Source: an uncultured Sulfurovum sp.
GTDB taxonomy: Bacteria > Campylobacterota > Campylobacteria > Campylobacterales > Sulfurovaceae
Assembly (NCBI GenBank): GCA_964527805.1
Contig: CAZGNT010000006.1
Span: forward strand, 1,540-65,539
Direction: 5' to 3'
Length of the DNA stretch: 64,000 nucleotides
Part shown: positions 26,235 through 50,329 of the stretch, in pieces
How positions within the stretch are numbered: position 1 is the stretch's first letter
Layout of the letters: each line of letters starts with the position of its first letter
Notes under the pieces: model-generated
Told to the model about the DNA's origin: nothing
The model's database searches: none
Seen by the model: only the letters and a program-made list of their open reading frames with translations
Position numbers and translations under genes: made by a program

Positions 26235-26281
26235 TTATGATTATGCGTTATACAAATATATATATAAAGGAAGAAAATCTT

Positions 26282-28515: not shown

Positions 28516-28914
28516 ATGTTGAATAGACTCAAAGGAAAAATAGTCTCTATCCAATCATCACAGCACCTCTCGTTTCTTGAGATCGGCATAGAAGATGACA
28601 TACTGCATCTTCTTTTGCTTGAAAAACCTATCGAGAGTGTCGGCTCGGACGTGATCTTGGTATTTAAAGAAAGCGAAGTGATGCTCTCAAAAAAACCCCT
28701 GTTCTCAACTGCCAATACCTGCAAGGCCCGTATATACAAAATAGAATACGGAGAGATACTAACTTGCGTAACACTGCTTTATAAAGACAAACAGATTACG
28801 GCCCTTGCACCAACTGCTTCTTTTGAGTCGCTTAATTGCAAATTGAACGAAGAGGTTTATTGGATCATAAATCCAAGTGAAATTTCGCTTCAAAGGGAAC
28901 ATCATGGAAAATGA
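28516..28914 (+). CDS. stand-alone TOBE/Mop-type molybdate-binding protein (no HTH)
   Basis: 132 aa; 'NRLKGKIVSIQSS..LSFLEI' and second half 'NTCKARIYKIEYGEILTCVTL', suggesting two TOBE-like halves. Occupies the same position as the TOBE gene between modA and modB in Campylobacter mod operons. Confidence 0.7.
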   Translation: MLNRLKGKIVSIQSSQHLSFLEIGIEDDILHLLLLEKPIESVGSDVILVFKESEVMLSKKPLFSTANTCKARIYKIEYGEILTCVTLLYKDKQITALAPTASFESLNCKLNEEVYWIINPSEISLQREHHGK

Positions 28915-35260: not shown

Positions 35261-36280
35261 ATGACTCAAATCAAAACAATTGCCATACTCAGTGTCGCAA
35301 TGACTGCATTAATAATGATAGCTTTAGTCTCTATTCTTTTGGGGCAGTATCCAATTGATTTTATCACTTTAATGGGGTATATCGATTTTAAACTTTTTGG
35401 CGGAAACAGCAACGATACATATACGCTGCTTGACAATATTATTTTACAAATACGCCTTCCGCGTATTTTATTAGCAATTCTCATAGGTGCATCATTGGCA
35501 TCAAGCGGGGCAGCATTTCAAGCAATGTTTGTAAACCCTTTAGTCTCTCCAGGGATTTTAGGAGTTTTAGCAGGAGCAGCATTTGGTGCAGCACTTGGAA
35601 TGCTTATCAGCGAGCAGTGGTATATTGTTCAAATATTGGCATTTATATTTGGTTTTATCGCCGTAGGTTTAGCTGTTCTAATAGGCTCCATGGTGACCAA
35701 TTCACGATCAACTATCATGCTAGTCCTTGGCGGCGTTATAAGCGGGTCCCTCTTTACTGCACTGCTATCAGTTGTAAAATACGTAGCCGATCCATACAGC
35801 ACCCTTCCTGCTATAGTATATTGGCTAATGGGAAGCCTTACTATGGCAGATCTACATGGAGTATTGCTGATTTCGATTCCTATGCTGCTTGGCATATTCG
35901 GAATGATCATGATGGGAAAATATTTTGATATTTTAAGTCTAGGAGATGAGGAAGCAAAAGCATTGGGAATCAATGTTGTCATGGTAAGGGCCGTAGCAAT
36001 CATCTTGGCAACCTTGATAAGTTCACTTTCTGTGGTAATGGCAGGAATGATAGGATGGGTAGGACTCATCATCCCGCATATCATACGTATGGCGGTCGGG
36101 CCATCACACAGATTGCTGATGCCGCTATCTGCAATTATCGGGGCGATATTTTTGCTATTGGCTGATTCTGTATCTCGTTTGGCATTCAGCGTTGAGATCC
36201 CACTTGGCATCATTACTTCGCTTATAGGAATACCTATTTTTATCATTGTACTAAAAAATGCGAGGGCAGCATGGAATTAA
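35261..36280 (+). CDS. FecCD-family ABC transporter permease
   Basis: 339 aa, about 9-10 TM helices; 'RLPRILLAILIGASLASSGAAFQAMF.NPLVSPGILGV', 'GWVGLIIPHIIR'. Confidence 0.88.
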   Translation: MTQIKTIAILSVAMTALIMIALVSILLGQYPIDFITLMGYIDFKLFGGNSNDTYTLLDNIILQIRLPRILLAILIGASLASSGAAFQAMFVNPLVSPGILGVLAGAAFGAALGMLISEQWYIVQILAFIFGFIAVGLAVLIGSMVTNSRSTIMLVLGGVISGSLFTALLSVVKYVADPYSTLPAIVYWLMGSLTMADLHGVLLISIPMLLGIFGMIMMGKYFDILSLGDEEAKALGINVVMVRAVAIILATLISSLSVVMAGMIGWVGLIIPHIIRMAVGPSHRLLMPLSAIIGAIFLLLADSVSRLAFSVEIPLGIITSLIGIPIFIIVLKNARAAWN

Positions 36281-37062
36281 ATTCAATTATTGATATCAAA
36301 GATTTACATTTTGCTTATTCTAAAAACAAGATACTTGACGGCATTGACTTCAACATCAACTCTGGTGAGGTAGTTAGCTTGCTTGGTCCAAACGGATGCG
36401 GCAAAAGTACCCTTATACGATTGATATTAAAACTTATAAATTTTAGTCATGGTGAGATATTGATCAACAATAAAACAATTCATAATTATTCACATAAAGA
36501 GATTGCAGAATACATAGCCTATATACCCCAATATCACAACGTACCATTCAATTATACAGTGCTGGAGATGGTAATGATGGGACGCATCTCAAAGCTGGGA
36601 TTTTTTGCCACTCCATCAAACAGAGATAGAGAAATTGCATATGAATCTTTAAGACATATAGGCATAGATAATCTCTCGTCACGACCTTTTGGACAGCTAA
36701 GCGGGGGGCAAAAACAGATGGTACTTTTGGCTCGCGCGCTGACGCAAGAAGTTAATACTTTTATCATGGATGAACCGGTATCAGGACTCGATTATGGCAA
36801 TCAGATCCGCTTATTAGAACTCATTTCAGAACTTAGCCATCAAGGCTATACATTCCTCAAAACGACTCATTACCCTGACCATGCCCTTCTTGTATCTAGT
36901 CGTGTTGTCATAATGAACCATGGTAAAATCATAGCTAACGGCAAACCGCATGATGTTATTACTGCGCCGATGATTCAGGATGTTTATGGAATTGGTGCAG
37001 ATCTGATAGAGCATGGTGCTCATACTCGCTGTCTGCCTATTTTTAACAAAGGGCTGCAATGA
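36271..37062 (+). CDS. ABC transporter ATP-binding protein (FecE/HmuV-like)
   Basis: Walker A 'GPNGCGKST', signature 'LSGGQKQMVLLARAL', Walker B 'FIMDEPVSGLD'. Confidence 0.88.
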   Translation: MELNSIIDIKDLHFAYSKNKILDGIDFNINSGEVVSLLGPNGCGKSTLIRLILKLINFSHGEILINNKTIHNYSHKEIAEYIAYIPQYHNVPFNYTVLEMVMMGRISKLGFFATPSNRDREIAYESLRHIGIDNLSSRPFGQLSGGQKQMVLLARALTQEVNTFIMDEPVSGLDYGNQIRLLELISELSHQGYTFLKTTHYPDHALLVSSRVVIMNHGKIIANGKPHDVITAPMIQDVYGIGADLIEHGAHTRCLPIFNKGLQ

Positions 37063-38039
37063 AATTTTTTACTATTCTTATAATTTTATTGATTATGCAT
37101 AGCAATATTTATGCCAAAACGATTACTGATGGTTATGGAAGAGTTGTAACTATACCGGACAAAGTGACTAAGATCTATGCTGCATCTCCTCCTCTAGCAA
37201 TGAGTCTCGTTGCTTTTGATCCAACTCTTATGGCAGCGCTTAATTCTCCGTTCAAGCCCGATCAAAAGCCTTATGTCGGCACTGCCGCATCCAAGCCGGT
37301 TGCGGGAGGTTTTTTCGGGCAAGGCAATACACCCAACTATGAAGTGTTGGCGGCTACCAAGCCCGATGTAATTCTCGTGTGGCAGAAAGCGCCGGGCTCA
37401 GAAGATCAACTTAAAAAATTTATGGCACTCAATATTCCTGTATTGATGATACACAATGAGTCCATCGATGACCTAGTCGATCAATTTGAGCTTTTAGGAA
37501 AAATCACCGGCAATACCAAACGTGCGCACGAGCTTATCGCTTACACAAAAGAGACATTGGGGCTCATAAGGTCCCTTCAGAGCAAAATAAGTACCCATAA
37601 AAAAGTTCGCTACTATTTTGCAGAAGGACTTGACGGAATGTCGAGCGAATGCGAAGGTTCATTTCATCTTGAGCCTTTCAAATATGCCGGTGCCAAAAAT
37701 GCTCTAAACTGCAGCATGAGCTCAAACTACGGAATGGAGAAAATGTCGCTTGAAACAGTGATGTTGGCAGATCCGGATGTGATAGTCGCTATGGAATGTG
37801 CATTTGCTTTATCTGTCAAAACAGATCCAAAATGGAAAATGCTAAGAGCAGTCAAATCCGGAAACATTATAACCGTCCCATCTGTACCGTTTAATTATAT
37901 AACCCGTCCTCCATCATTTATGAGGCTTTTGGGAATACGCTGGCTGATACATTCGTTTTATCCGGATGTTCTACAAGGCTCATTGGATGATGAGACAAAA
38001 CGATTTCAAAAACTCTTTTTCCCAAGCTTTAAACCATAG
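37059..38039 (+). CDS. FecB/class-8 periplasmic substrate-binding protein (PBP-2, paralogue of PBP-1)
   Basis: 326 aa; 'YYFAEGLDGMSSEC', 'PFNYITRPPSFMRLLGIRWL', 'PDVILVW'. ATGA overlap with the ATPase gene. Confidence 0.8.
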   Translation: MKFFTILIILLIMHSNIYAKTITDGYGRVVTIPDKVTKIYAASPPLAMSLVAFDPTLMAALNSPFKPDQKPYVGTAASKPVAGGFFGQGNTPNYEVLAATKPDVILVWQKAPGSEDQLKKFMALNIPVLMIHNESIDDLVDQFELLGKITGNTKRAHELIAYTKETLGLIRSLQSKISTHKKVRYYFAEGLDGMSSECEGSFHLEPFKYAGAKNALNCSMSSNYGMEKMSLETVMLADPDVIVAMECAFALSVKTDPKWKMLRAVKSGNIITVPSVPFNYITRPPSFMRLLGIRWLIHSFYPDVLQGSLDDETKRFQKLFFPSFKP

Positions 38040-38062
38040 TCAAAAGAGTTTATCGTGCCTAT

Positions 38063-38086
38063 CGATATATTAAAAATAGTATAACG
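38063..38086. promoter_or_regulatory. Mo-box-like 24-bp palindrome 2 (putative ModE-type operator)
   Basis: CGATATATT-AAAAAT-AGTATAACG (3 mismatches to CGnTATATA-N6-TATATAnCG). Nested inside a longer inverted repeat GCCTATCG...CGATAGGC (38057-38092). Lies 34 nt upstream of ATG 38120. Confidence 0.5.
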
Positions 38087-38119
38087 ATAGGCAAAACATT
38101 AAAAAAACAAGGAGTAAGA

Positions 38120-38740
38120 ATGAACAAACACACACAAAACAATGGTTGCCAATCATGCAAAACAACATCTTTTGCACAAGTAGCACAAACAGCACCCTTT
38201 GCTCAAAACAGCCGTAATTTTGGAGGAGAAGATATCCGCATAGTAGACTCGATGATTGATTTTATCTATCCTCCGGTTCCGTTTCCTTCCAATAAAATTT
38301 TTAAAACGATGGGCGAAGAAAAAATTCGTGAAATGGTATGGCATCATCACCGATTGCTTCTAAAAACAAAGGTGGGAGACCTTTTTCCCAGAAACGAAGA
38401 AGCTTTTAAAATGGCTGTAGATAAAAGTGCCGACTTATTTGTAGAAGCACTCGGAGGAGATCCGATATTTACCGAACAGCACGGAGGGTTTCATCTGCGA
38501 ATGCGGCATTTCAAAGTTCCGATTGATGAAAATGACCGCGAAATTTGGCTCGCTATGTATAAAAAAACGCTCAAAGATATCGATTTTCCAAAAGAACATC
38601 TAGAAGAGTTCTGGAATTGGATAGAGCCGCTTTCTATCCGCATGATAAATAGACGCACTACCATGGAAGCTGTCAAACGGCACCATTGGAGCACTGTCAA
38701 AAGAGAATTGACGGGAGCAGGAAAAGATAATGAACGCTAG
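38120..38740 (+). CDS. group II (YjbI/trHbO-like) truncated haemoglobin with ~50-aa N-terminal extension
   Basis: 206 aa. 'ALGGDPIFTEQHGGFHLRMRHFKVPIDENDREIWLAMYKKTL' matches the 2/2-globin group II pattern GGP..Y...rGHP.LR.RH..F.I....D.WL, with the proximal His in 'RMRH'. The N-terminus contains 'CQSC'. No signal peptide. AAGGAG RBS. Confidence 0.65.
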   Translation: MNKHTQNNGCQSCKTTSFAQVAQTAPFAQNSRNFGGEDIRIVDSMIDFIYPPVPFPSNKIFKTMGEEKIREMVWHHHRLLLKTKVGDLFPRNEEAFKMAVDKSADLFVEALGGDPIFTEQHGGFHLRMRHFKVPIDENDREIWLAMYKKTLKDIDFPKEHLEEFWNWIEPLSIRMINRRTTMEAVKRHHWSTVKRELTGAGKDNER

Positions 38741-40913
38741 ATTAACCCTATCTTTGTGTGCATGTTTATTTTTATGCAATTCTTTGCTATATGCGCAAAC
38801 TGTCGAACAGGAGCTAAATAAAGTTGATGTTGAAGCAGAAGCATCAGACGAACCAAGCGTTGGGACAAAAACAGTAACAAACGCTAAAGAGATACAAATC
38901 TTTAGCAGTGCGGAATTAATCAACCCTTACAAAGCCATCTCGCTAGAACCCGGTGTTGATATCCGTTTTAACGATTCCTTTGGTATGGAAATCAGCCATA
39001 AGATTAGAGGCAAATCCGATCGCAACATCGGAGAAATGATGGAAGGATTGCCTCTCAAAGGTATTGGTCCGGGAGGCAGCTTGGCGACAATGGTAGATAT
39101 CGAGAATATCGAATCGATCAGCGTTGAGAAGGGAGCTATCAAAGCCGACAGCGGTTTTGGATATGGAAGCGACAACGGCATGGTGGATATGCACATGAAA
39201 AACCCTGCCGATAGTTTTGAAGCCACGCTAAAACAAGCAATAGGAACTGAAAATTTTTCGAAAACTTATCTTCGAGTAGATAGCGGTGATATCGCAGGAA
39301 AAGCTAAATTATTTGTATCCGGCTCATTGACAAACGCCGATAAATGGAAAGGAGAGGGCGAATCACCTGATAGAAAAAACTTTGCCGCAGGAATAGCAAG
39401 TACAAGCGGCCAACCTATCGAGTGGGAGCTTTATGGAATATACAACGATGAAAAAAAACATTCCTACAAAGGTCTTACTTATGCTCAAAGCAAAGATTTA
39501 AATGCAAATGGCAAGCTGGATTATCAGACAACCGATCCTTCTCTTTCTTCTTATTATGATTACAATAAGGAAAATTTTCAAACCTATACTATTTTAGGGA
39601 AGCTCAAAGTGCCTTTTTCATCTGAATCCTCACTCACGCTTAGACCATATTATTTAAATGACAAGGGCTACAGCTATTCAACAAGCGGCGACAATGTAAT
39701 GGATTGGCTAGTAGACCATGATACATATGGAGTTATCATAGAATACGCCAAAAATATATATGACGGAAAGATGAAATTGGGATATTGGTGTCAAGAAGAC
39801 GAACCTCCTGGGCCTCCAACATCCAGAAAAGTTAGAAAACCAGGAAGCTTAGACTTTGTAAAGTGGGAGCGCATCATAGGTATCAAAGAAAACCATACCT
39901 TTAGCGCACCGTTTATTACCTATGAAAAAGCATTTGGAAACACTGTCGTTGAAGCCGGTTTGAAATATTTGTGGCAAGCTTCGCCTCATTTGATAAGCTA
40001 CAACACGGCAGGTATAGGCGATGTAAGCTACAAAGAGGCTCTGTCGCTGGTTCAGAATATTGATTTCACACTGCCTTCAAATACATATGAAATATTTTTG
40101 CCTAATATCGGTGCTACATATTTTCTAGATGACAATTCTTATATAAAAACAAGTTACGGCAAAAACTATAATGTTCCCAATTACAGCTTTGGGGGAAATA
40201 TGATAAGTTATTTTAACAATCCTATAATCAACAAAAATGAAGCACTTCTCCAAAAAATGTGGGGGGATTTAAAGCCCGAAGAGTCAGATAATTTTGACAT
40301 AAGCTACACATACGAAGAGGAAAATTTCTCTGTAACTTCATCGATTTTTTACTCTTTGGTGCAAAATGTGGGCGGCACGTTTTATGATCCTGTTTTGGCA
40401 ATGTATTATCAGCAAAACACAGCAGAAGCATGCTCTTATGGCTTAGAAATTGGAGCTAGCTATAAAATATCGGACAATTTATCTTTAAATGCCTCCGCAA
40501 CTTACAATCATTATGCATTTACATCGGATATACAATCATCGGCCGGTGCATATATTCAATCCAAAGATAACCAGCTTCCTGATGTTCCTAAATTTTATGC
40601 AAACATCTCTGCTGTATACGATCTGAATGGATACAAAATAGCCCCTATATTGAGATATCTAGGAAAACGTTATGTCGATGTAGAAAACAAATACAGCGTA
40701 GATTCTCATTATCTAATCGATATATCGCTAAACAAAGAGGTAGCTTTGGAGAATAATCACAAAATCAATTTCTCAATCTCGGCTAGTAATCTGTTGGGCG
40801 AAGAGTACATATCGACAGTTTCTACATCTGAAACCAATGTGGCCGAAGTAGGCCCTACGTATATAGTTGGCTCCCCGAGAGCTATCTTTGCATCGGCACA
40901 ATATAGGTTTTAG
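38730..40913 (+). CDS. TonB-dependent receptor (TBDR-2, paralogue of TBDR-1)
   Basis: 727 aa; signal peptide 'LLYA/QT', plug 'HKIRGKS...MMEGLPLKG', 'GYWCQEDEPPGPPT', C-terminal 'SAQYRF'. Confidence 0.85.
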   Translation: MNARLTLSLCACLFLCNSLLYAQTVEQELNKVDVEAEASDEPSVGTKTVTNAKEIQIFSSAELINPYKAISLEPGVDIRFNDSFGMEISHKIRGKSDRNIGEMMEGLPLKGIGPGGSLATMVDIENIESISVEKGAIKADSGFGYGSDNGMVDMHMKNPADSFEATLKQAIGTENFSKTYLRVDSGDIAGKAKLFVSGSLTNADKWKGEGESPDRKNFAAGIASTSGQPIEWELYGIYNDEKKHSYKGLTYAQSKDLNANGKLDYQTTDPSLSSYYDYNKENFQTYTILGKLKVPFSSESSLTLRPYYLNDKGYSYSTSGDNVMDWLVDHDTYGVIIEYAKNIYDGKMKLGYWCQEDEPPGPPTSRKVRKPGSLDFVKWERIIGIKENHTFSAPFITYEKAFGNTVVEAGLKYLWQASPHLISYNTAGIGDVSYKEALSLVQNIDFTLPSNTYEIFLPNIGATYFLDDNSYIKTSYGKNYNVPNYSFGGNMISYFNNPIINKNEALLQKMWGDLKPEESDNFDISYTYEEENFSVTSSIFYSLVQNVGGTFYDPVLAMYYQQNTAEACSYGLEIGASYKISDNLSLNASATYNHYAFTSDIQSSAGAYIQSKDNQLPDVPKFYANISAVYDLNGYKIAPILRYLGKRYVDVENKYSVDSHYLIDISLNKEVALENNHKINFSISASNLLGEEYISTVSTSETNVAEVGPTYIVGSPRAIFASAQYRF

Positions 40914-40914
40914 A

Positions 40915-41949
40915 ATGTATAGGCTCACAACTAACTTCATGATCTGTGTTTCTCTGCTCTGCGGCATTGCCCTGGCAGACAATAAACAAACATGTGCAAA
41001 TAAAGTGCCGGATTTTGCCAAAAATGAAGTTTGCATTCCGCAAAAGATAGATAAGATCATTATCACTTGTTATGGCGGCGCATCACAAGAGATAGCGCTT
41101 TTTATGGGTGCTGGCAAAATCGTTGCACAACCCGATGTTAAAAAATTTCAGCAATTTCTAAAAATCTATCCGACACTGAAAAACATTCCAAACGCAGGGA
41201 CTTTTAACGATGTAAATCTGGAGTATTTATTAAAATTGAATCCCGACATCGTTTTTGCAGGAGTCACTTCGATTCCTTCCAACGAACGGATAAAAGAGAT
41301 GAATATTCCGGTATTTACCCTTGGCATCGGCAAACACAACATTTCTTCTCTTATGGAAGAGTTTTTACACGTCGGAAAAATTCTTCATAAGGAGCAAAAG
41401 GCCAAAGAACTGATCAGATATTGGCATTCCAAAATGGACATGATCCGCCTTCGGATTCCTAAGGTCAAATCATCAAAACCACAAAAAGTATTTTACACTA
41501 ATAGTCCATCATCGGGACTAAACAGCGAACACAAACAATGGTGGGGCGATGAGTTTATCCGCGCTGCCGGAGGGGTAAATGTCGCCTCGGATATTGTTAT
41601 ACAAGGACCGATTTCTGCTGAAACACTGTCAATATGGAACCCAGATATCATTATCACATCGACCAATAATAAATCCAATGCTTCGGCCGGTGGATTTATG
41701 AAAAATACCGCCTTTAAAAATCTTAAAGCAGTCAGAAACAGAGTAGTTTATCAAGCGCCTATAGGAACTTTTTGGTGGGATCGCCCATCGCCTGAATCTA
41801 TTTTAGGAATTATATGGCTAAGTAAAATTTTATATCCTGAAGCAATGCATGATATCGACTTAAAACAAGAAACAAAAGTATTTTACAAAAAGTTTTACAA
41901 CTACACTCTTTCCGACAAAGAATATGTAGAATTTTTTGTCCCCCAATAA
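40915..41949 (+). CDS. FecB/class-8 periplasmic substrate-binding protein (PBP-3, distinct subfamily)
   Basis: About 344 aa from ATG 40915 (MYRLTTNF..., signal peptide 'GIALA/DN'); 'PDIVFAGV', 'YQAPIGTFWWDRPSPESILGIIWLSK'. The track start at 40867 is TTG inside TBDR-2. Confidence 0.75.
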   Translation: MYRLTTNFMICVSLLCGIALADNKQTCANKVPDFAKNEVCIPQKIDKIIITCYGGASQEIALFMGAGKIVAQPDVKKFQQFLKIYPTLKNIPNAGTFNDVNLEYLLKLNPDIVFAGVTSIPSNERIKEMNIPVFTLGIGKHNISSLMEEFLHVGKILHKEQKAKELIRYWHSKMDMIRLRIPKVKSSKPQKVFYTNSPSSGLNSEHKQWWGDEFIRAAGGVNVASDIVIQGPISAETLSIWNPDIIITSTNNKSNASAGGFMKNTAFKNLKAVRNRVVYQAPIGTFWWDRPSPESILGIIWLSKILYPEAMHDIDLKQETKVFYKKFYNYTLSDKEYVEFFVPQ

Positions 41950-41967
41950 AAATAATAAGGAAAAACC

Positions 41968-42585
41968 ATGAAAGGCGCAACAGGCCCTAAAAATTTTGAC
42001 CGGATAGTGCGTGAAGTATTCGCACCAATCTATCCGGTCATAGCAAAACAGATCAAAGAACGCACCAAGATCACTAGCGGCAAATGCCTGGATGCCGGAT
42101 GCGGCACGGGAGCGCTCGGAAGAGCCATAACCAAGATCACTGATCTTAACATCACATTTTTTGACCAATCAGATGAAATGCTTTCTCTTGCAAAAGGATA
42201 TACGAATGATGAGAATATCGGCAACAGAAGTACTTTTTTGCAAGGAGATATTCACTCTATTCCGCTAAATGATGAGAGCATGGATATAGTAATTAGCCGG
42301 GGTTCATCTCCATTTTGGGAAGATTGGCACAAAGCATATAGAGAAATACTCCGAATTCTCAAGCCGGGAGGCATGGCATACATCGGTGGAGGATTTGGCA
42401 ACGCTGAGCTTAGAGAAGAGATCACAAGGACAATGACCAAAAATAACCCAGACTGGCGCAATTCTTTTAAAGATAAAGTCGTCGCTGAGCGTGAAGCCCT
42501 TCTGGATATTCTAAGATCGCTCAATCCTAGCCACTTTGAAATAATCAATGATGACAGCGGCTTTTGGGCTGTCATTACTAAATAA
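41968..42585 (+). CDS. class I SAM-dependent methyltransferase (MT-1)
   Basis: 205 aa; motif I 'CLDAGCGTGALG', motif II 'MDIVISRG', 'LKPGGMAYIG'. Confidence 0.8.
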   Translation: MKGATGPKNFDRIVREVFAPIYPVIAKQIKERTKITSGKCLDAGCGTGALGRAITKITDLNITFFDQSDEMLSLAKGYTNDENIGNRSTFLQGDIHSIPLNDESMDIVISRGSSPFWEDWHKAYREILRILKPGGMAYIGGGFGNAELREEITRTMTKNNPDWRNSFKDKVVAEREALLDILRSLNPSHFEIINDDSGFWAVITK

Positions 42586-42594
42586 GGAAAATTT

Positions 42595-43602
42595 ATGAAA
42601 ATAGGACTTTTTTGTCTTGCTGAACATTTCGAAGGAAAAGTACATGAAAGCATAATGGATCAGTTGAGACTTGTAGAGCTTGCTGACAAACTCGGTTTTG
42701 ATGAAGCGTGGTTTGGCGAACACCATTTTAACGGCTTTAGCGTTATCCCCGATCCATCTATTATGATGGCTTATGCTTCTGTCAAAACAGAATCTATTCG
42801 TTTGGGAACAGCCGGTTTTTTGGCTCCATTTTATCATCCGGTACGATTAGCCGAGAGCATATCGGTACTTGACAATCTCTCAAAGGGCCGAATAAATGCA
42901 GGATTTGCAAAAGGAGGATTTGCTCCTGATAATAAACATTTTAACCGCGATCCTGATAGCCTGCGCAATGCAATGTTTGAGATAGTCGAGGCTGTAGATA
43001 AGCTTTTACATCTACAAAATACTTCTTTTAAAGGAACATATGCGTCTTTTAAAAAAGTAAAATTGCATCCAAAACCATTACAAGAACGAATACCTTTTTT
43101 TGTAGCTACATTCTCGAGCCCCGATACGATCCATTTTGCCGCACGCCTCGGTTATGGTTTGCTTATGTCGCAAGGAGCTACTATAGAGGAGTGCAAAGAA
43201 GCGCAAGAGTTATATCGATCCATTGCCGGATTTGATCCAAAGATCGTACTCATGCGGGTATTTTGTATCGCAGATAGCCATGAAGATGCTTACCGCATCG
43301 CGCGGCCCTCAATTGACCATTTTGTCAAATCAATGCGCGCTGCCTCTTCTGAAGTTCCGCCTCCAAAGTGGAACAGGGAAAAATATGATGCGATAATTAG
43401 TGAGCGTGAAACATTTTTCGATGGACAAAAATTTTTTGACAATGCTATATTGGGAGCACCCCCTGAGTGCATCCAAACTATTAAAACCATAAAGAAGGAA
43501 CTGCCAAATGTACACCTTGCATTAAAGCCGTCATCAAATGATTTTAATCAAAATTACGACATGCTGATAGAATTTAACGCAAGAATTCGACCATATATCT
43601 AA
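42595..43602 (+). CDS. LLM-class (luciferase-like) flavin-dependent oxidoreductase
   Basis: 335 aa; 'FDEAWFGEHHFNGFSV.PDP', 'LDNLSKGRINAGFAKG', TIM-barrel LLM pattern. Confidence 0.78.
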   Translation: MKIGLFCLAEHFEGKVHESIMDQLRLVELADKLGFDEAWFGEHHFNGFSVIPDPSIMMAYASVKTESIRLGTAGFLAPFYHPVRLAESISVLDNLSKGRINAGFAKGGFAPDNKHFNRDPDSLRNAMFEIVEAVDKLLHLQNTSFKGTYASFKKVKLHPKPLQERIPFFVATFSSPDTIHFAARLGYGLLMSQGATIEECKEAQELYRSIAGFDPKIVLMRVFCIADSHEDAYRIARPSIDHFVKSMRAASSEVPPPKWNREKYDAIISERETFFDGQKFFDNAILGAPPECIQTIKTIKKELPNVHLALKPSSNDFNQNYDMLIEFNARIRPYI

Positions 43603-43617
43603 AAACAAGGAAAAACA

Positions 43618-45579
43618 ATGAACAAACACTTACTTATCCTCTCGTTTGCTGCTTGTGCAGCGCTTGCCGATACTTTTACGCTCGGACAGATCAGCGTTCT
43701 TGATACTGCTCTTGAAGAGAGCCCTTTTGAGCAAACTATAACTTCAAAAGAGATCGAACAACACGATTCGGAAACCATTTCGGACGCCATTGATAATATG
43801 AGCGGAATTAACCAGGATCTTCAAGGAGGCCGCGGAGAATCTACCCTATCTATAAGAGGATTTGATGCCAGGCGTATAGGGGTATTTATAGACGGAATAC
43901 CAGTCTATGTCCCATATGACGGCAATTTCGATTATGACCGTTTCCTGACTAGCGATATCGCTCAGATCGATGTAGCCAAGGGGTTCTCGTCGGTTGCATA
44001 TGGAGCCAATACGATGGGAGGGGTTATCAACATCATCTCCAAAAAACCGACAAAAGCATTGGAGGGGAATATTAAAGCAGGGATTATAAGCGATAGTGAC
44101 GGTTCTATGTCCAGACATGTCGAATCTATCAATCTAGGGACTAGACAAGACCATTTCTACGCACAATTAAGCGGGGTGTACAGTGATCGGGATCATTTTC
44201 GCCTAAGCGATGATTATAGCGCCACCCCTTCACAGCCTGAAGGTGACCGTTTGCGTTCTAAAGCAGAGGATTACAAGATAAGCTTTAAAACCGGCTATAT
44301 AGCAAATGACGGCAGCGAGATCGCCGTGGGATATGCAAAACAAAATGGTGAAAAACAGCAACCGCCAGTAACCGATAATGCTTTTAGCAAGCCAAAATAT
44401 TGGGATTGGCCGTACTGGAATAAAGAGACCGCCTATATCACAGGCCAAAAAAATCTAGACTTGGGATACCTCAAAGCAGTTGCCTATTACGATACATCCA
44501 AAAACTCTCTATATGCATATGATGATGCGTCGTATTCCACAATGAACTTCAAATCATCATTTAAAAGCAAATACGATGATTATAGTGCAGGGACACGTCT
44601 CGAATACGGGGTCGAACTAGACAAGCATTTTATCACCGCTGCAGCAAACTATAAAAAAGATTCCCACAAAGGGTATGATATCGACAAAACTACAGACATT
44701 GCAACCCTCACAGAGCATTTTGTTGACGATACGGTATCGCTTGGCATAGAAGATGTATATACCATTTCTCCAAACTGGCAGCTATTAGGAGGGATCAGTT
44801 ATGACCGCAAAGAATCCGACAAAGCGTACGACAAAAATTCCGGGAAATTTCCTTTGGCCCTAGGAGAACAAGATGCTCTCAATCCTCAAGCGGCACTTAT
44901 CTATTCTATTGACAATACCAGCAAAATGCGTGCAAGTATCTCTCGCAAAACATATCTTCCGAGCATGAAAGACCGCTATAGCAGAAAGCTTGGCACAGCA
45001 CTTCCAAATCCAGATCTTGACGCTGAGACAGCTACACACTATGAACTCAGCTATCAAAAAAATATGGGGGCTTTTAGCGGACATATCAACGGATTTTTTG
45101 ACCGGCTAGATGACACGATCCAAGCTGTGATCGTGACGCCTGACGAGACACAGAACCAAAATATAGGAAGCTTTGACCACAGAGGCATCGAAGCAGAGCT
45201 GAGTTACAAAGCCGACTGGCTGGAGATCGGAGGAAATTACACATATATTTCTGTGAAAAATCGTACCGATAATGATATCAAAAGGATAGACATTCCCAAG
45301 CATCAAATTTTTGCTTTCGCTCAATATGAGCTAGGTGATGGGATTTCTATATATGGGAATATGAAATTTCGCAAAGGAGCATATGAACAAAAAGCCGATA
45401 AATCATACGTGATCAATCCGGCTTTTACGACATTTGACATCAAAGTTATCTATCGACCGACCGAAGCTATCACTGCAGAGATCGGAGTAAAAAACCTTAC
45501 TAATGAACTCTATGCTTATGACCTTGGGTTTCCGACGGCGGGACGTGAGTTTTTCATCAACCTAGGATATAATTTCTAA
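43618..45579 (+). CDS. TonB-dependent receptor (TBDR-3, BtuB/CirA-sized)
   Basis: 653 aa; signal peptide 'AALA/DT', TonB box-like 'TLGQISVLD', plug 'LSIRGFDARRIGVFIDGIPVY', 'GANTMGGVINIISKKP', C-terminal 'FINLGYNF'. Confidence 0.85.
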   Translation: MNKHLLILSFAACAALADTFTLGQISVLDTALEESPFEQTITSKEIEQHDSETISDAIDNMSGINQDLQGGRGESTLSIRGFDARRIGVFIDGIPVYVPYDGNFDYDRFLTSDIAQIDVAKGFSSVAYGANTMGGVINIISKKPTKALEGNIKAGIISDSDGSMSRHVESINLGTRQDHFYAQLSGVYSDRDHFRLSDDYSATPSQPEGDRLRSKAEDYKISFKTGYIANDGSEIAVGYAKQNGEKQQPPVTDNAFSKPKYWDWPYWNKETAYITGQKNLDLGYLKAVAYYDTSKNSLYAYDDASYSTMNFKSSFKSKYDDYSAGTRLEYGVELDKHFITAAANYKKDSHKGYDIDKTTDIATLTEHFVDDTVSLGIEDVYTISPNWQLLGGISYDRKESDKAYDKNSGKFPLALGEQDALNPQAALIYSIDNTSKMRASISRKTYLPSMKDRYSRKLGTALPNPDLDAETATHYELSYQKNMGAFSGHINGFFDRLDDTIQAVIVTPDETQNQNIGSFDHRGIEAELSYKADWLEIGGNYTYISVKNRTDNDIKRIDIPKHQIFAFAQYELGDGISIYGNMKFRKGAYEQKADKSYVINPAFTTFDIKVIYRPTEAITAEIGVKNLTNELYAYDLGFPTAGREFFINLGYNF

Positions 45580-46382
45580 TGCGTACAATTATATTTATTT
45601 TATTATTTTGTTTTTCGTCGGTTCAACTATATGCCAAACAAGAACCTGCTTTACGTGTTGCTGTTATAGGTGGCATGACTATGAGCGGCATGTGGCAAGA
45701 GGTTTCAAAAGCATTTGAAGAAGCTTATCATATTCCCGTTGAAGTAGTAGTTTCAGGCCCAAAACACGAACTTGACAAATACAGCAGGACTCACAAAGTT
45801 GATCTGGTCACAATGCACTCAAGCGATACCATGGTAGACTTGGCAGCCGACGGGATGGTCGAGAACCTAACGCCATGGGCTCGAAATTCACAGATGCTAG
45901 TAGGCCACATGTCAAATCTTGCGCACATAGATGAAAACGACTCCCTGGAAGAAGCCATGCAAAAAATCAGTCAAACAAACTCTCCCATTCTTATACATGC
46001 CAGTGGAGGGACATTTGAGGTTTTTAATGATGTAGCCTCTTCTTATAAATTATCACCCGGCCAGATCCATTTGATTACCGCCAAGCATGGTTTTTTAGAT
46101 GATGTTGCCAAACTTAAAGGATATACATTTTTTGGCGTTATACCATTTTTGATGCAAAAACAGCATCATCCTGATATGCACGGTTTTATATTTGATGATA
46201 CCAAGCTTCGCAGGCCATATCTTGCAGCGATAGGGACCAAAGAAAACATAGGTGCGCTCCAACACCAAAATGCACAAAAACTGCTTTTATTCCTCACGTC
46301 CAAGAGAGTGCAAAACCTTATTAAAAATTTTAGGCTCAACGGATTTGACAAAACCCCTGTATTTTTTCCGGTAAAACCCTAG
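45579..46382 (+). CDS. periplasmic PBP2-fold substrate-binding-domain protein, TupA/tungstate-binding-like but divergent
   Basis: 267 aa; signal peptide 'VQLYA/KQ'; 'LRVAVIGGMTMSGMW..V...FE...HIPVEVVVSGPK' is laid out like TupA 'ATTTSTxxSGL...F......V.V.AVGTG', but the TTTS anion-binding motif is not conserved. 1-nt TAATG overlap with TBDR-3. Confidence 0.5.
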   Translation: MRTIIFILLFCFSSVQLYAKQEPALRVAVIGGMTMSGMWQEVSKAFEEAYHIPVEVVVSGPKHELDKYSRTHKVDLVTMHSSDTMVDLAADGMVENLTPWARNSQMLVGHMSNLAHIDENDSLEEAMQKISQTNSPILIHASGGTFEVFNDVASSYKLSPGQIHLITAKHGFLDDVAKLKGYTFFGVIPFLMQKQHHPDMHGFIFDDTKLRRPYLAAIGTKENIGALQHQNAQKLLLFLTSKRVQNLIKNFRLNGFDKTPVFFPVKP

Positions 46383-46388
46383 GAGGAT

Positions 46389-47189
46389 ATGATGATATTT
46401 TTAAAACAGATCGATTTTGCTAGAATGTACCGTGAACATAAAAGCGCTACCGACTTCAAGGGCAAAAGCAGCAACGACTGGGATGATAAATCCAAAGAGA
46501 TGGCAGCGTCTGTCATCAATAGCCCATACGTGAACGACTTTATCTCGCGTATGGATATTTCTGGAGACGAAGTGGTATTGGATATCGGTTGCGGGCCTGG
46601 GACGCTTGCGATCCCTCTTGCCAAAAAAGTCAAAGAGGTGATAGCTATAGACTTCTCAAAGCAAATGTTAGCCGAACTCGAAGCTTATGCCGCGCGCGAG
46701 GGAGTGACAAATATCCGTACCTATCACCTAAGCTGGGAAGACGACTGGAGTATTTTACCGTCTGTTGATATCGCAGTGGCGTCTCGCAGTACGGAGGTCA
46801 AAGATATTGATACCGCACTTGCTAAAATGTCGCATCAAGCAACAAAGGCATGTTATCTGACCTACAAAGTAGGCGGCAGTTTTGTCGACATGGATATCCT
46901 TGAGTATATCGGCAAAAAAATAGTTACTAAACCTGATTTTTGGTATATCCCTGTTTTGTTATACCAACACGGCTATCTGCCTCGTATCGACTATATAGAA
47001 ACCAAACGAGGGAGTATACGCGCAGGCAATGCTGATGAATTTGTACAATCACTTATCTGGAGTGTGCATGATCTTGACACAGAGCAGCAGCGCAAAGCCC
47101 GTGAATATTATTATAAATTTATCGCCGCACAAGATCGTCAGCCTAAACCGTTCGTTTGGGCATTCATATCTTGGAGTAGTAGAGTTTAA
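46389..47189 (+). CDS. class I SAM-dependent methyltransferase with C-terminal extension (MT-2)
   Basis: 266 aa; motif I 'VLDIGCGPGTLA', 'VIAIDFS'; AGGAGG RBS. Confidence 0.78.
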   Translation: MMIFLKQIDFARMYREHKSATDFKGKSSNDWDDKSKEMAASVINSPYVNDFISRMDISGDEVVLDIGCGPGTLAIPLAKKVKEVIAIDFSKQMLAELEAYAAREGVTNIRTYHLSWEDDWSILPSVDIAVASRSTEVKDIDTALAKMSHQATKACYLTYKVGGSFVDMDILEYIGKKIVTKPDFWYIPVLLYQHGYLPRIDYIETKRGSIRAGNADEFVQSLIWSVHDLDTEQQRKAREYYYKFIAAQDRQPKPFVWAFISWSSRV

Positions 47190-47235
47190 AGATTTTATTT
47201 TTACATCACAAATATAGATTATTATATTTTATAAA

Positions 47236-47264
47236 ATACAATGATATTTATTTTATCATTGTAT
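47236..47264 (+). terminator. AT-rich stem-loop after MT-2 (candidate terminator)
   Basis: Perfect 11-bp inverted repeat ATACAATGATA / TATCATTGTAT with a 7-nt loop, 47 nt after the MT-2 stop; a T-tract (tagttttttta) lies about 15 nt downstream. Confidence 0.45.
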
Positions 47265-47294
47265 ATTGTTCAAAAAAATAGTTTTTTTATGATT

Positions 47295-47318
47295 CGATAT
47301 ATATTTAAAGATATATCG
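47295..47318. promoter_or_regulatory. Mo-box-like 24-bp palindrome 3 (putative ModE-type operator)
   Basis: CGATATATA-TTTAAA-GATATATCG (1 mismatch to CGnTATATA-N6-TATATAnCG). Part of the perfect 11-bp-arm inverted repeat ATTCGATATAT-N8-ATATATCGAAT (47292-47321). Lies 75 nt upstream of ATG 47393. Confidence 0.6.
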
Positions 47319-47392
47319 AATAGATTCCTAGTACAATATTATAAAGTCATACTATACTCATTTATATATCAAAAAACCGCAAAGGATCGTTA

Positions 47393-48160
47393 ATGGGGTC
47401 AGCAAAAACAGAATTGGAAATATTGAATTATACAAAACTCATTGATCTGCAAAAAAACAAACAAAGGTCAAAAGCAGATTTTAGCGAGATTAGAACAAAT
47501 GATACAAACGGCACAAGGGAATTGATTCACAAAGTCAATATACTAGATGCAAAAGCATTACTCGATTTTGCATCTGCAGATACAAATATTGCTCCGAAAT
47601 TCAAACACTTATACGCAAATGACGAGTATAATTTTGGAACGGTTGAGCACCTGATAAACAATTGCGATATAAAGAATTTAAACAATATTACAACGATTAA
47701 TAATGAGTGGTATGATGAATGGAGCGATACACATCAAGTAGACATCATTGTATCTTCACAAACAGAGGATATAGAAAATATAAAATCTGCGCTCAAAAAA
47801 CTTTATAATAACAAACATAATAGAATTTATATCAATCTATCCATCAACAAACATTTCAGGGAAGAGATGATCCTGTCCCAACTAAAAAGGCATATCACTC
47901 CCAAAATTGACAATACACACATCGTAAACATACTAAAATCTATGGGAATTTGTGCTAAAATAGATTTTATTCATAGAGAAGATAAAAGATTTTTATCACA
48001 AACAGGTGATATATTTTTTGAAAAAGTACAATTAAGCCTAAAAGATCAAAGCGAAAACGAAAAAATGGATTTAAAAAAATATTTTGACAGAACCCATAAT
48101 TTTAAAAAAGATACAGCTTTTATCAAATGGGGGATATTATCTTTTGAAAACGGAAAATAA
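47393..48160 (+). CDS. hypothetical protein; apparent degenerate paralogue of MT-2 lacking the SAM-binding GxGxG motif
   Basis: 255 aa; AAGGA RBS. By-eye alignment to MT-2: 'LLDFASADTNIAP' vs 'VLDIGCGPGTLAIP', 'EWYDEWSDTHQVDIIVSS' vs 'SWEDDWSILPSVDIAVAS', 'ITPKIDNTHIVNILKSMGICAKIDFI' vs 'VTKPDFWYIPVLLYQHGYLPRIDYI', 'WGILSF' vs 'WAFISW'. Confidence 0.6.
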   Translation: MGSAKTELEILNYTKLIDLQKNKQRSKADFSEIRTNDTNGTRELIHKVNILDAKALLDFASADTNIAPKFKHLYANDEYNFGTVEHLINNCDIKNLNNITTINNEWYDEWSDTHQVDIIVSSQTEDIENIKSALKKLYNNKHNRIYINLSINKHFREEMILSQLKRHITPKIDNTHIVNILKSMGICAKIDFIHREDKRFLSQTGDIFFEKVQLSLKDQSENEKMDLKKYFDRTHNFKKDTAFIKWGILSFENGK

Positions 48161-48181
48161 CATTATTAAAACGGGAAAAAT

Positions 48182-49027
48182 ATGTTTAGATTAAACGACC
48201 AAGAATTATTAGAGTATATGAAAGAGGATGTACCATACCTTGATCTGACCACAACGCTCCAAGAGATGTCAGACAAAAAAGCCAAAATGCAGATCTTCAC
48301 TAGAGAAGATGTCATAGTAGCATGCAGCGAGGAAGCAGCGAGGGTAGCCCAGCTCTTTGGATGCGAAATACATTTTATGCTCCCTTCTAAAACAAAAGCC
48401 AAGCAGGGGGATGTTTTGATAGAGTTTGGCGGTAGCTATGAAAATGTCCAAAGCGCCTGGAGATCTACCCAACTAATATTGGAATATTCATGCAAGATAG
48501 CCACTTATGCTTACGAAATGAAACATGAAATGTCTACCATAAATCCTCATTGTGAACTCTTGGTTACCAGAAAACATTTTCCATTTGCCAAAAAGTTTTG
48601 CATCAAATCGATCATTTGCGGAGGAGCTATGCCTCATAGATTGGGCCTAAGCGAAACCGTTCTTCTTTTTGCACATCATCGCAAAGTCTATGCCAACAAT
48701 GAGGCATTTTACGAAGCTCTGCGGGATATAAAAACCAAAGCTTTAGAAAAAAAAGTAGTCGTAGAGCCAACGGATATGGATGATGCTATGGCTCTCATGA
48801 AATATGGAGCAGATGTATTGCAAATGGATAAAACCGACTTGACATCCCTTAAAAAGATCACATCGTACAGAGACGAGCACTACCCTCATATCAAAATACT
48901 CGGTGCCGGAGGTATCAATAAAAATAATGTCAAAGAATTTGTAGCAACCGGTATAGATGGTGTGGTTACAAGCAAGATATATTTTTGCGGCATGGCGGAC
49001 ATGGGAAGCAATCTAGAGATTATCTAG
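48182..49027 (+). CDS. modD: ModD protein (quinolinate phosphoribosyltransferase-fold, molybdenum-utilisation associated, function unknown)
   Basis: 281 aa; 'EDVPYLDLTT' N-terminus, 'RKHFPFAKK...GGAMPHRLGLSE', 'VEPTDMDDAM', 'GAGGIN..NV..F..TGIDGVVTS' QPRTase/ModD layout. Confidence 0.75.
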   Translation: MFRLNDQELLEYMKEDVPYLDLTTTLQEMSDKKAKMQIFTREDVIVACSEEAARVAQLFGCEIHFMLPSKTKAKQGDVLIEFGGSYENVQSAWRSTQLILEYSCKIATYAYEMKHEMSTINPHCELLVTRKHFPFAKKFCIKSIICGGAMPHRLGLSETVLLFAHHRKVYANNEAFYEALRDIKTKALEKKVVVEPTDMDDAMALMKYGADVLQMDKTDLTSLKKITSYRDEHYPHIKILGAGGINKNNVKEFVATGIDGVVTSKIYFCGMADMGSNLEII

Positions 49028-49063
49028 TAAAAAAATATATTTTTTGATACAATTGAAAAAAAC

Positions 49064-49666
49064 ATGGAACACATCACAATGGATAAAGAAACTAAATTAG
49101 AAGGCATTGCGGAAGCAACATCAAAAATATTAACGCTTTTGGGCGAGGATATCAACAGGGAAGGGCTGCTCAAAACTCCTATGAGAGTCGCTAAAGCCTT
49201 GGAATTTTTAACAAGCGGCTATCACGAAAATCCTCATGAAATTCTCAACGAAGCACTTTTTACTACAAGCAATGACGAGATGGTACTCGTGCGCGATATA
49301 GAATTTTACTCCATGTGTGAACACCACATACTTCCTATCATAGGACGAGTACATGTGGCATATATCCCGGATGGCAAGGTGGTGGGATTGTCTAAAATTC
49401 CTCGTATTGTTAATGTATTTGCAAGACGTCTTCAGATCCAAGAGCAGCTCACCGAACAAATAGCAGACGCTATAAGCGAAGTTATCAATCCAAAAGGGGT
49501 TGCGGTAGTAGTTCATGCGCGCCACATGTGTATGGAGATGAGAGGAGTTGAAAAGATTAACTCCACTACTGTTAGTTCGGCTCTTAGAGGGCTTTTTAAG
49601 AGCGACACCCGCACTAGAAATGAATTTTACAATCTCATTAATACCCACACGCCGTCAAACTTTTAG
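49064..49666 (+). CDS. folE: GTP cyclohydrolase I (type IA)
   Basis: 200 aa; '[14 protein letters not shown]', '[11 protein letters not shown]', 'HMCMEMRGV'. Confidence 0.92.
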
Positions 49667-49681
49667 ATAAAAGGGGCTTAG

Positions 49682-50329
49682 ATGCTGCAAAATATCTCTA
49701 AAAAATGGGTAAAAACTTTTGCTCTTTTATTGCCTCAAATTATACTAGCAAGTGATAACATTTCCCCTTTGGATGAATCAATAAAAAAAGAGATGAATGG
49801 TGTCAGCCATCATCGCGGGTGCCCCGTGGGGCTAAATGAGCTCAGGTTAGTCAAAGTGAAACATTTGGGATTTGATGGAGCGACCAAAAATGGAGAACTT
49901 GTAGTTCACAAAAGCATAGCCGATGAAGTGGTATCTATTTTTGACGAGCTCTACAAGATAGGTTATCCTATAAAACAAATATTACGCATCGATAAATTCA
50001 AAGGAAGTGATTTTGCCTCAATTGAAGCAGACAATACCTCTGCATTCAATTGCCGTAAAGCCACCGGCAGCGGCAAATGGTCTAAGCATTCGTATGGAAA
50101 AGCCATAGATATCAACCCTATCGAAAATCCGTACGTCTTTAGAGGCGGACGCACAGCTCACAAAGCTTCATACAAATATATAAACCGTAATATAAAAAAT
50201 ATTGATACACCCCAAGAAAAAGCCATGCTTTTGCCAAACAGCAAAGCCGTCGCAATATTCAAAAAATATGGCTGGCGTTGGGGCGGCGATTGGACAGTAA
50301 AAGATTATCAACATTTTGATAAACAATAA
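49682..50329 (+). CDS. M15-family zinc peptidase (VanY/LD-carboxypeptidase-like), secreted
   Basis: Signal-like N-terminus; 'SKHSYGKAIDINP' (HxxxxxxD), 'WGGDW...DYQHF' (second His). Confidence 0.78.
   Translation: MLQNISKKWVKTFALLLPQIILASDNISPLDESIKKEMNGVSHHRGCPVGLNELRLVKVKHLGFDGATKNGELVVHKSIADEVVSIFDELYKIGYPIKQILRIDKFKGSDFASIEADNTSAFNCRKATGSGKWSKHSYGKAIDINPIENPYVFRGGRTAHKASYKYINRNIKNIDTPQEKAMLLPNSKAVAIFKKYGWRWGGDWTVKDYQHFDKQ

Follow-up and report, generated by a model that had tools for sequence, protein, structure and literature searches.

In its textbook form, molybdenum uptake consists of passive entry through porins followed by transport through ModABC. The closest described relative of the locus reported here is MolBC-A of Haemophilus influenzae, an experimentally studied low-affinity type II importer of molybdate and tungstate whose expression is repressed by molybdate (PMC4031551) and whose genes form the cluster modA-molCBA-modD (PMC3928620). 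We analysed a stretch of 64,000 nucleotides (the window) from an uncultured Sulfurovum sp. (assembly GCA_964527805.1, contig CAZGNT010000006.1); named homologues place the organism among Sulfuricurvum/Sulfurovaceae-like Campylobacterales. Five adjacent genes of the window encode two methyltransferases (MT-1 and MT-2), a luciferase-like flavin monooxygenase (LLM), a TonB-dependent receptor (TBDR) and a periplasmic binding protein (PBP). The explanation that we consider best overall, and likely, is that these are the distal genes of an eight-gene operon in an island for molybdenum or tungsten (Mo/W) starvation, and that their enzymes would process the imported Mo/W.

Like the H. influenzae cluster (HI1469-HI1475), the window combines a permease closest to MolB, three class III PBPs related to MolA and an ATPase with modA, modBC and modD. 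Compared with H. influenzae it adds TonB, three TBDRs, three PBP paralogues, a truncated haemoglobin, two methyltransferases, a pseudo-methyltransferase (pseudo-MT), the LLM and a TupA-family protein that lacks the oxyanion loop, all of them unreported for H. influenzae. Among solved type II permeases, the window's permease scores 209 bits with MolB (2NQ2), 162 with FhuB, 152 with HmuU and 138 with BtuC. PBP-1, PBP-2 and PBP-3 all match MolA, PBP-3 over its full length, and PBP-1 and PBP-2 show a very strong match to 4PAG, a structural-genomics protein from Sulfurospirillum. From the resemblance to MolB and MolA and the parallel with modA-molCBA-modD we therefore classify the window, by its sequence, as an elaborated Mol/ModD system for MolBC-A-type Mo/W uptake and not as an iron system. 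An earlier note on this DNA did not identify the system, which we read as a Mo/W island of MolBC-A type under predicted ModE control and not as a generic metal-chelate operon.

The five genes and their operon

The five genes come last in an operon with the following eight members:
38120-38740, + strand: truncated haemoglobin-like protein (globin) with an N-terminal extension (Bac_globin, 40 bits, cut-off 21)
38730-40913, + strand: TBDR-2, TonB-dependent receptor (domain match)
40915-41949, + strand: PBP-3, MolA-like binding protein 3 (MolA, 3PSA/3PSH, E 2.1e-24, full length)
41968-42585, + strand: MT-1, class I S-adenosylmethionine (SAM) methyltransferase of the PDB 3DLC family (205 aa; Methyltransf_11, 77.5 bits)
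42595-43602, + strand: LLM, luciferase-like flavin monooxygenase (335 aa; Bac_luciferase, 179.7 bits, cut-off 27.9)
43618-45579, + strand: TBDR-3, TonB-dependent receptor (653 aa; Plug, 79.9 bits; TonB_dep_Rec_b-barrel, 125.9 bits)
45579-46382, + strand: divergent TupA-family periplasmic binding protein (267 aa; SBP_bac_11, 28.1 bits, cut-off 25)
46389-47189, + strand: MT-2, class I SAM methyltransferase with a small-molecule methyltransferase fold (266 aa; Methyltransf_25, 51.4 bits)

The open reading frames confirm the order MT-1, LLM, TBDR-3, TupA-like PBP, MT-2 given in the earlier note, all on the + strand, and the tight packing it described (gaps of 6-18 nt or overlaps) agrees with the measured spacing: 18 nt between PBP-3 and MT-1, 9 nt between MT-1 and LLM, 15 nt between LLM and TBDR-3, a 1-nt overlap of TBDR-3 with the TupA-like PBP and 6 nt between the latter and MT-2. 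Inspection of the translations revealed no signal peptide in the two methyltransferases, as had been claimed, and none in the LLM; TBDR-3 and the TupA-like protein carry N-terminal signal peptides.

Scanning one genome per species yielded 130 relatives of MT-1, and 80 loci were kept. Loci are cited here by L numbers, L025 and L027 being second recoveries of L013 and L014; neighbourhood counts refer to the 38 Campylobacterota loci and the 16 loci from other bacteria that had enough flanking sequence. MT-1 is accompanied in Campylobacterota by a MolA-like PBP and a TBDR (37 of 38 loci each), the LLM (31/38), the globin (25/38) and MT-2 (22/38). Because these partners recur, the five-gene arrangement is not a chance adjacency. 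Homologues of MolB, MolC and MolA also lie beside MT-1 in 15 of the 16 loci from other bacteria, and parts of modABC in seven; these loci span Syntrophomonas, Sporomusa, Desulfosporosinus, Desulfotruncus, Pelotomaculum, Moorella, Alkaliphilus and Desulfomicrobium. Thus, MT-1 adjoins MolBC-A-like importers in three bacterial phyla (Campylobacterota, Firmicutes and that of Desulfomicrobium). The Desulfomicrobium locus contains modABC twice, DUF364, TonB, a TBDR, FmdE and an MT-2-like gene. Nearly all named carriers of MT-1 come from sulfidic or anoxic habitats.

Several loci differ in their details. The Sulfurimonas-type loci L041-L046 and L061 hold a ModD-like gene (about 30% identity) in a MolB-MolC-ModD-(TauE)-PBP unit, and an additional divergent TBDR precedes MT-1. 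An Arcobacteraceae island (L054) consists of modABC, TauE, globin, TBDR, MT-1, ExbB, ExbD, TonB, TBDR, two LLMs, PBP, MolB, MolC and an MT-2-like gene, and ends with a di-TOBE molbindin (Mop, 19780-20193). The diderm Firmicute Sporomusa ovata (L065) has a TBDR (7260-9263) within its cluster of MolBCA, two MT-1 genes and a radical-SAM component, together with a 234-aa P-loop protein (3156-3860).

The label TupA-like holds at the level of the fold family; as a true TupA the protein fails, with 17.3 bits for NF041772 against a cut-off of 400, and where TupA-type proteins have the oxyanion loop TTTS it reads IGGMTMSG, a sequence kept in all 12 aligned orthologues. Its closest solved relative is the uncharacterised 3MUQ (E 3e-5). 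Conserved motifs (AVIGGMxxSGMW, TMHSSDT, HxSGGTFEV) lie where oxyanion-binding residues would be, and the protein has no ABC partner of its own.

Probable molybdenum-dependent control

The pattern CGWTAT-N12-ATAWCG has three exact matches in the window, against 0.67 expected, and one further match with a single mismatch. These motif matches, listed without strand, are:
26183-26206: Mo-box 1, CGTTAT-N12-ATAACG, upstream of modA
26246-26269: second copy of Mo-box 1, one mismatch
38063-38086: Mo-box 2, 33 nt upstream of the globin gene, the predicted operator of the eight-gene operon
47295-47318: Mo-box 3, a perfect palindrome 74 nt upstream of the pseudo-MT and modD genes

A Mo-box directly before modD, which had been noted earlier, was not recovered; no match with at most one mismatch lies there. 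The signal extends well beyond the window: 40 related Campylobacterota loci (676 kb) contain 45 matches, compared with 7.8 +/- 2.5 in local shuffles, and these precede globin, MT-1, pseudo-MT, PBP, TonB and modA genes. The position of Mo-box 2 before the globin orthologue is kept in L013, L014, L015, L016, L019, L020, L024-L028 and L054, and that of Mo-box 3 in L013 and L014. In five Sulfurimonas-type loci (L040-L042, L044, L061) the box precedes MT-1 by 37-57 nt. Together, 46 sites give the consensus tCGTTATAT-N8-ATATAACGa, with the positions outside the search pattern 72-93% conserved and symmetric, i.e., palindromic; this layout is that of ModE operators.

The locus resembles the ModE regulon and the modA operator known from E. 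coli and further bacteria in two respects: each unit begins shortly after a 24-bp inverted repeat of the type CGnTATAT-N8-ATATAnCG, and the genome encodes a ModE-like protein with a helix-turn-helix domain (HTH_1) and two TOBE/Mop domains. This protein lies on another contig (L023, 907-1683); its Mop domain scores 65.7 bits against a cut-off of 55, and ModE_repress scores 89, slightly under the cut-off of 98.5. Unlike the ModE regulon, the putative targets in the window exceed modABC and cofactor genes and include receptors and uncharacterised enzymes. A modE gene is found, in another family (L017), divergently beside an operon of TonB, globin, LLM, PBP, permease (MolB), ATPase (MolC) and TBDR, which abuts genes for a NarJ-like chaperone and a molybdopterin oxidoreductase. 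Altogether, shortage of molybdenum probably switches on the operon of the five genes. No riboswitch was found in an Rfam scan of the entire window, and a promoter and terminator scan of 37900-49800 gave counts not above chance, which bears neither way on internal units.

Outside Campylobacterota a different element appears, in five Firmicute loci. Molybdenum cofactor (Moco) riboswitches (RF01055, 52-78 bits) lie upstream of the MolB-MolC-PBP-MT-1 cluster in L066, L070, L081 and L082, and directly before MT-1-modABC in Alkaliphilus (L083). As predicted elements they constitute a second, independent kind of Mo-dependent control on MT-1 operons. The Moorella operon (L082, 714-10589) runs from the Moco riboswitch through DUF364, MolB, MolC, a MolA-like PBP, MT-1, a radical-SAM fusion and a ferredoxin to a tungsten-type aldehyde ferredoxin oxidoreductase, a content that points to tungsten supply. 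The riboswitch in L083 (3205-3326) lacks the P3 hairpin, which the riboswitches before MolBCA-MT-1 operons retain; a P3-less variant has been proposed to sense the tungsten cofactor (PMC2408646). Across the loci, Mol-type systems are linked to modABC, modD, Mop, the tungsten-type oxidoreductase and molybdopterin oxidoreductase.

Enzyme families and the rest of the island

MT-1 matches PDB 3DLC, a putative SAM-dependent methyltransferase from structural genomics, over its full length (E 8.3e-54) and is a clear member of this family. No function is assigned to 3DLC, and the archaeal family members examined are not beside transport genes. The family is rare: of 1.84 billion representative clusters, 98 reach E<=1e-30. 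MT-1 stays under every curated cut-off, including those for UbiE/MenG (TIGR01934 and PRK00216 models; 55.7 bits against 158), ArsM (49 against 263), BioC (59 against 185) and CmoM (29 against 366). A corrinoid reading, considered on account of weak CpaM matches, was discarded, since these matches score 44-67 bits where the cut-off is 180 and the operons have no cobalamin riboswitch.

The same holds for MT-2 with UbiE/MenG (27 bits against 158), TehB (22.5 against 218) and the rRNA and tRNA methyltransferase models RlmD (38.5 against 183) and RsmA (25.9 against 171). Its AlphaFold2 (AF2) model has a mean confidence (pLDDT) of 88, and the fold neighbours are generic small-molecule methyltransferases with TM-scores of at most 0.64; the top value belongs to the dithiol S-methyltransferase TmtA/GtmA and is weak evidence. 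Pseudo-MT is 25% identical to MT-2 over 126 aa (E 8e-14), in the C-terminal part only. A ModD homologue directly follows MT-2 in L029, L030, L032 and L039.

MT-2 also has an orthologue in E. coli CFT073. The interval between ymgE and treA (C_RS07695-C_RS07720) encodes a PBP, a FecCD permease, an ATPase, a class I methyltransferase, ModD and a TBDR. The methyltransferase is 32% identical to MT-2 (E 2e-44), the receptor 29% identical to TBDR-3 over 623 aa (E 1e-70), and the permease 41% identical to the MolB-like permease of the window; the first gene is preceded, at a distance of about 25 nt, by a perfect Mo-box, CGCTATATATTTACATATATATCG. The E. coli operon thus shares with the window a MolA-like PBP, MolB- and MolC-like genes, the MT-2 orthologue, ModD, a TBDR-3-like receptor and the Mo-box; it differs in lacking MT-1, LLM, globin and the TupA-like protein and in having one receptor/PBP pair only. 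Our literature search found no description of this operon. Because of the E. coli MT-2 orthologue, its Mo-box and the synteny of MT-1, we regard both methyltransferases, from their genomic context, as conserved members of Mo-controlled Mol-type systems.

The gene immediately after MT-1 encodes an LLM in 31 of the 38 Campylobacterota loci. The LLM is under the cut-offs of all named subfamilies (best MupA/Atu3671, 126.6 bits against 244; LuxA, 107.5 against 600; SsuD, 19.7 against 518) and fits neither the MsnO8 nor the F420 classes at curated cut-offs. The earlier note would have been refuted by enzymes of housekeeping families whose orthologues elsewhere are unlinked to transport genes, and this is not what we see: no quinone, tRNA, ArsM, TehB or SsuD model comes near its cut-off, and the orthologues remain beside transport genes in different phyla. 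In the homologue searches with LLM, MT-1 and MT-2 the best 120 matches were all Campylobacterota proteins with generic names. A close orthologue of the LLM occurs in seven of 16 genomes of the genus, so that it is an accessory gene; two further genomes have a paralogue of 35% identity, and two other families carry an LLM at about 52% identity, again beside a globin.

The slot after MT-1 is taken by a fusion of about 600 aa, radical-SAM::Peripla_BP_2 (MolA-like), in L065-L069, L071, L074 and L082. Many Firmicute loci have it directly behind MT-1. L080 carries the fusion beside an MT-1-like gene of opposite orientation; L017 has it too, as does the end of L077. Examples are:
L082, 5452-7260: radical-SAM::Peripla_BP_2 fusion
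L071, 10579-12390: radical-SAM::Peripla_BP_2 fusion
L065, 10594-12393: radical-SAM::Peripla_BP_2 fusion
L017, 15560-17341: radical-SAM::Peripla_BP_2 fusion

Its radical-SAM domain is AmmeMemoRadiSam-like, under the cut-off, and the Peripla_BP_2 part is cytoplasmic. Since LLM and radical-SAM enzyme occupy the same slot, the arrangement suggests two solutions to one chemical step, O2-dependent in microaerophiles and radical-based in strict anaerobes, and the fusion may do the work of the LLM in anaerobes. That the radical-SAM enzyme is joined to a MolA-like domain further suggests that the step acts on whatever MolA-like proteins bind.

The globin matches PDB 4NK1 (E 1.4e-46), and the His of its RHF motif, aligned with the proximal His of YjbI, is kept. 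With the Bac_globin domain and the proximal His it is assigned to the truncated (2/2) haemoglobins and is predicted to bind haem.

Two further observations concern the neighbours of MT-1. An uncharacterised domain of about 330 aa, with the motifs VWPEDGA and LGWDFI, forms one protein with MT-1 in some database entries (523-548 aa), and in L065 (1813-3159) and L070 (45-809) a nearby gene of its own encodes it; it has no sequence match in the PDB, and its AF2 model reaches a pLDDT of 35. The Desulfosporosinus locus (L070, 1163-9926) comprises a Moco riboswitch, MolB, MolC, two nitrogenase-component-1-like (NifE-like) proteins, DUF364, PBP, DUF4213, a phenolic-type O-methyltransferase and MT-1.

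The island as a whole covers about 23 kb (26183-49027) from modA through modD. Besides the eight-gene operon it contains:
26237-27040, + strand: modA, molybdate-binding protein (SBP_bac_11, 170 bits)
27124-28506, + strand: OprD-family porin inside the mod operon (PF03573, 52 bits)
28516-28914, + strand: TOBE (Mop-like) protein (PF03459, 37 bits)
28877-30456, + strand: modB and modC (BPD_transp_1, ABC_tran)
30459-31226, + strand: TauE/SafE-family anion permease (PF01925, 106 bits)
31223-31981, + strand: TonB (TonB_C, 55 bits)
31990-33012, + strand: PBP-1, MolA-like binding protein 1 (PDB 4PAG, E 3.6e-81; MolA, HI_1472, 3PSA, E 1.6e-13)
33012-35252, + strand: TBDR-1, TonB-dependent receptor (PF00593, 94 bits)
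35261-36280, + strand: MolB-like type II ABC permease, FecCD family (2NQ2, HI1471, MolB, E 7.8e-61)
36271-37062, + strand: MolC-like ATPase (ABC_tran, 110 bits)
37059-38039, + strand: PBP-2, MolA-like binding protein 2 (4PAG, E 4.4e-54; MolA, E 4.4e-14)
47393-48160, + strand: pseudo-MT, MT-2 paralogue without a detectable SAM-binding motif (no Pfam match)
48182-49027, + strand: ModD (TIGR01334, 187.9 bits, cut-off 178.85)

The true start of modA is probably 26282, where a signal peptide begins with MGTISKLLFAF. The porin gene stands between modA and TOBE-modBC; the related L016 also has one, between modA and modB. Housekeeping genes flank the island, with hemH upstream and folE, a peptidase gene and nifS/nifU downstream.

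Proposed processing of imported Mo/W and its alternatives

The linkage to importers across phyla and the Mo-dependent control lead us to conclude that MT-1, MT-2 and LLM probably belong to Mo/W acquisition, as an undescribed step. The earlier note had proposed that the imported molecule is processed after import. This gains support because Mo-boxes and Moco riboswitches are shared with the importer, because the radical-SAM::MolA-like fusion fills the position of the LLM in anaerobes, and because MT-1 occurs in Gram-positive operons with little beyond the importer; among the chemical steps that the note listed, these data do not distinguish.

Mo/W shortage would derepress the island, and the receptors, powered by TonB, would carry a Mo/W species across the outer membrane to the MolA-like proteins, which would pass it to MolBC. 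In the cytoplasm MT-1 might methylate an S or O donor atom, either in the imported species or in its carrier. This step would be completed by a second enzyme, here the O2- and FMNH2-dependent (reduced flavin) LLM, perhaps supplied with O2 by the globin, and in strict anaerobes the radical-SAM::MolA-like fusion. MT-2 would work with ModD, and the freed Mo/W would enter cofactor synthesis.

The haem uptake operons chu and hut follow the logic of such a scheme. They too combine a receptor, a class III PBP and a type II ABC importer with cytoplasmic enzymes that open the carrier and free the metal, in O2-dependent and radical-SAM alternatives; their processing enzymes are ChuW (a radical-SAM methyltransferase), ChuS, ChuX and ChuY. 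The enzymes are not homologous to those described here, and metal and regulation differ.

Our leading guess is that the reaction frees metal that is thio- or organically bound. A fuller version of this proposal seems possible to us, with the balance of probability against it: MolBC-A-type systems with these partners would import Mo/W that ModABC cannot use (thiomolybdate or thiotungstate from sulfidic waters, or organically bound metal) and not free molybdate, MT-1 and MT-2 would alkylate the S or O donors, and LLM plus haemoglobin or the radical-SAM fusion would finish the release. Circumstantial evidence for import of something other than molybdate comes from the sulfidic and anoxic habitats, from the TupA-like loop, which has changed from hydroxyl-rich to Gly/Met, and from the TM-score of MT-2 to a dithiol S-methyltransferase.

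Two candidate substrates fit best. One is the sulfur of thiomolybdate or thiotungstate, since the carriers live in sulfidic or anoxic habitats, an anaerobe uses tetrathiomolybdate and the TupA-like loop is lost. Tetrathiomolybdate is a good nucleophile towards alkylating agents. Its use by an anaerobe proceeds by an unexplained route (PMC11484787). The other candidate is the oxygen donors of an organic chelator, e.g., catecholates, because there are several receptor/PBP pairs, an LLM of secondary-metabolite type and, in L070, a phenolic-type O-methyltransferase, and because radical-SAM enzymes normally need an organic substrate.

Several points weigh against a role of the enzymes in Mo/W uptake. 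To our knowledge there is no precedent for methylation in this process. MolA of H. influenzae binds bare molybdate and tungstate, and since its operon has no methyltransferase, MolBC-A needs no tailoring in principle. The nearest solved relatives of the LLM are polyketide-tailoring LLMs and luciferase at about 1e-27, nothing specific. MT-1 homologues of Methanoculleus (38-41% identity) are not beside transport or Mo genes, and one on plasmid pIAE1 of Trichlorobacter lovleyi (40% identity; L104, 11986-12648) has no Mo or transport link, so that, judged from the plasmid neighbours, the family also occurs in at least one further setting. These Methanoculleus and Trichlorobacter homologues share the family motifs R15, FAPIYP, SRGS, FW and GG(G/S)FG. 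Finally, the genome is a metagenome-assembled genome that is 65% complete. The neighbours of the plasmid gene are tatA/tatC, a c7-type cytochrome and ribBA.

We weighed four other explanations, each of which is less likely than processing of imported Mo/W. The one that survives best is that ModD, MT-1, MT-2 and LLM build a secreted Mo/W-binding compound, which the TauE-family permease exports and the receptors and MolBC retrieve. The permease is present in the island here and in relatives, the several receptor/PBP pairs resemble siderophore systems, and ModD is a phosphoribosyltransferase-like enzyme. We nevertheless think it improbable, as no scaffold-forming enzyme (nonribosomal peptide synthetase, NIS synthetase or opine-type) lies between hemH and folE, MT-1 is found in Firmicute operons with only the importer, DUF364 and a radical-SAM fusion, and the enzymes of the E. 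coli operon are one methyltransferase and ModD only.

The methyltransferases could instead detoxify look-alike oxyanions or metalloids (arsenite, selenite, tellurite) that enter under derepressed Mo uptake, in the manner of ArsM or TehB. This would suit L083, where MT-1 stands directly with modABC behind the riboswitch, and arsenite methyltransferase models are among the weak top matches of MT-1 and its relatives. These matches of 49-63 bits are, however, far under the cut-offs (ArsM 263, TehB 218) and barely exceed the SAM-binding core, and the LLM/radical-SAM partner and the pairing of MT-2 with ModD would be left unexplained. We therefore give detoxification a lower probability still.

Uptake of iron, haem or siderophores with degrading enzymes, for which ChuW is a precedent, is very unlikely. 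It is suggested by the predicted haem-binding globin that heads the operon, by TBDR-3, which among NCBIfam subfamilies scores best with TonB-hemin (154 bits, cut-off 317), and by the annotation pipeline PGAP, which labels the E. coli PBP as an iron ABC transporter substrate-binding protein. It conflicts with the Mo-boxes here and the Moco riboswitches on the Firmicute counterparts, with a permease nearer to MolB than to HmuU, FhuB or BtuC, and with the linkage to modABC, modD, Mop and Mo/W enzymes described above. That unrelated housekeeping genes lie among the transport genes by chance we hardly credit: class I methyltransferases and LLMs are very common and some distant MT-1 homologues are unlinked to transport, but synteny is conserved in three or four phyla, a single operator precedes the closely spaced genes, the LLM is accessory and no housekeeping model was matched.

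The transport core and its control (MolBC-A, ModD, ModE) are of known kinds. Added to them, as far as context and motifs can tell, are two uncharacterised methyltransferase families that travel with MolBC-A-type importers across phyla under Mo-dependent control; our literature search found no paper that couples Mol-type uptake to TBDRs, two conserved methyltransferase families and an LLM or radical-SAM partner. If the enzymes do free the metal from some species that is not molybdate, no earlier enzymatic pathway of metal release would be known for Mo/W. The puzzling affinity of about 100 uM of MolA for free molybdate would have an explanation, and many genes annotated as iron ABC transporters or class I SAM-dependent methyltransferases would be reassigned. 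Such a pathway would also bear on the supply of Mo where sulfide turns molybdate into thiomolybdate, and offer a mechanism for the recent finding that anaerobes use tetrathiomolybdate (PMC11484787). With the E. coli operon the question becomes approachable in a standard laboratory organism. The island and its relatives, from E. coli to Moorella, would represent a second, widespread, Mo-controlled route next to that through porins and ModABC, in which passage across the outer membrane is energised and a MolBC-type pump is joined by dedicated enzymes in the cytoplasm.

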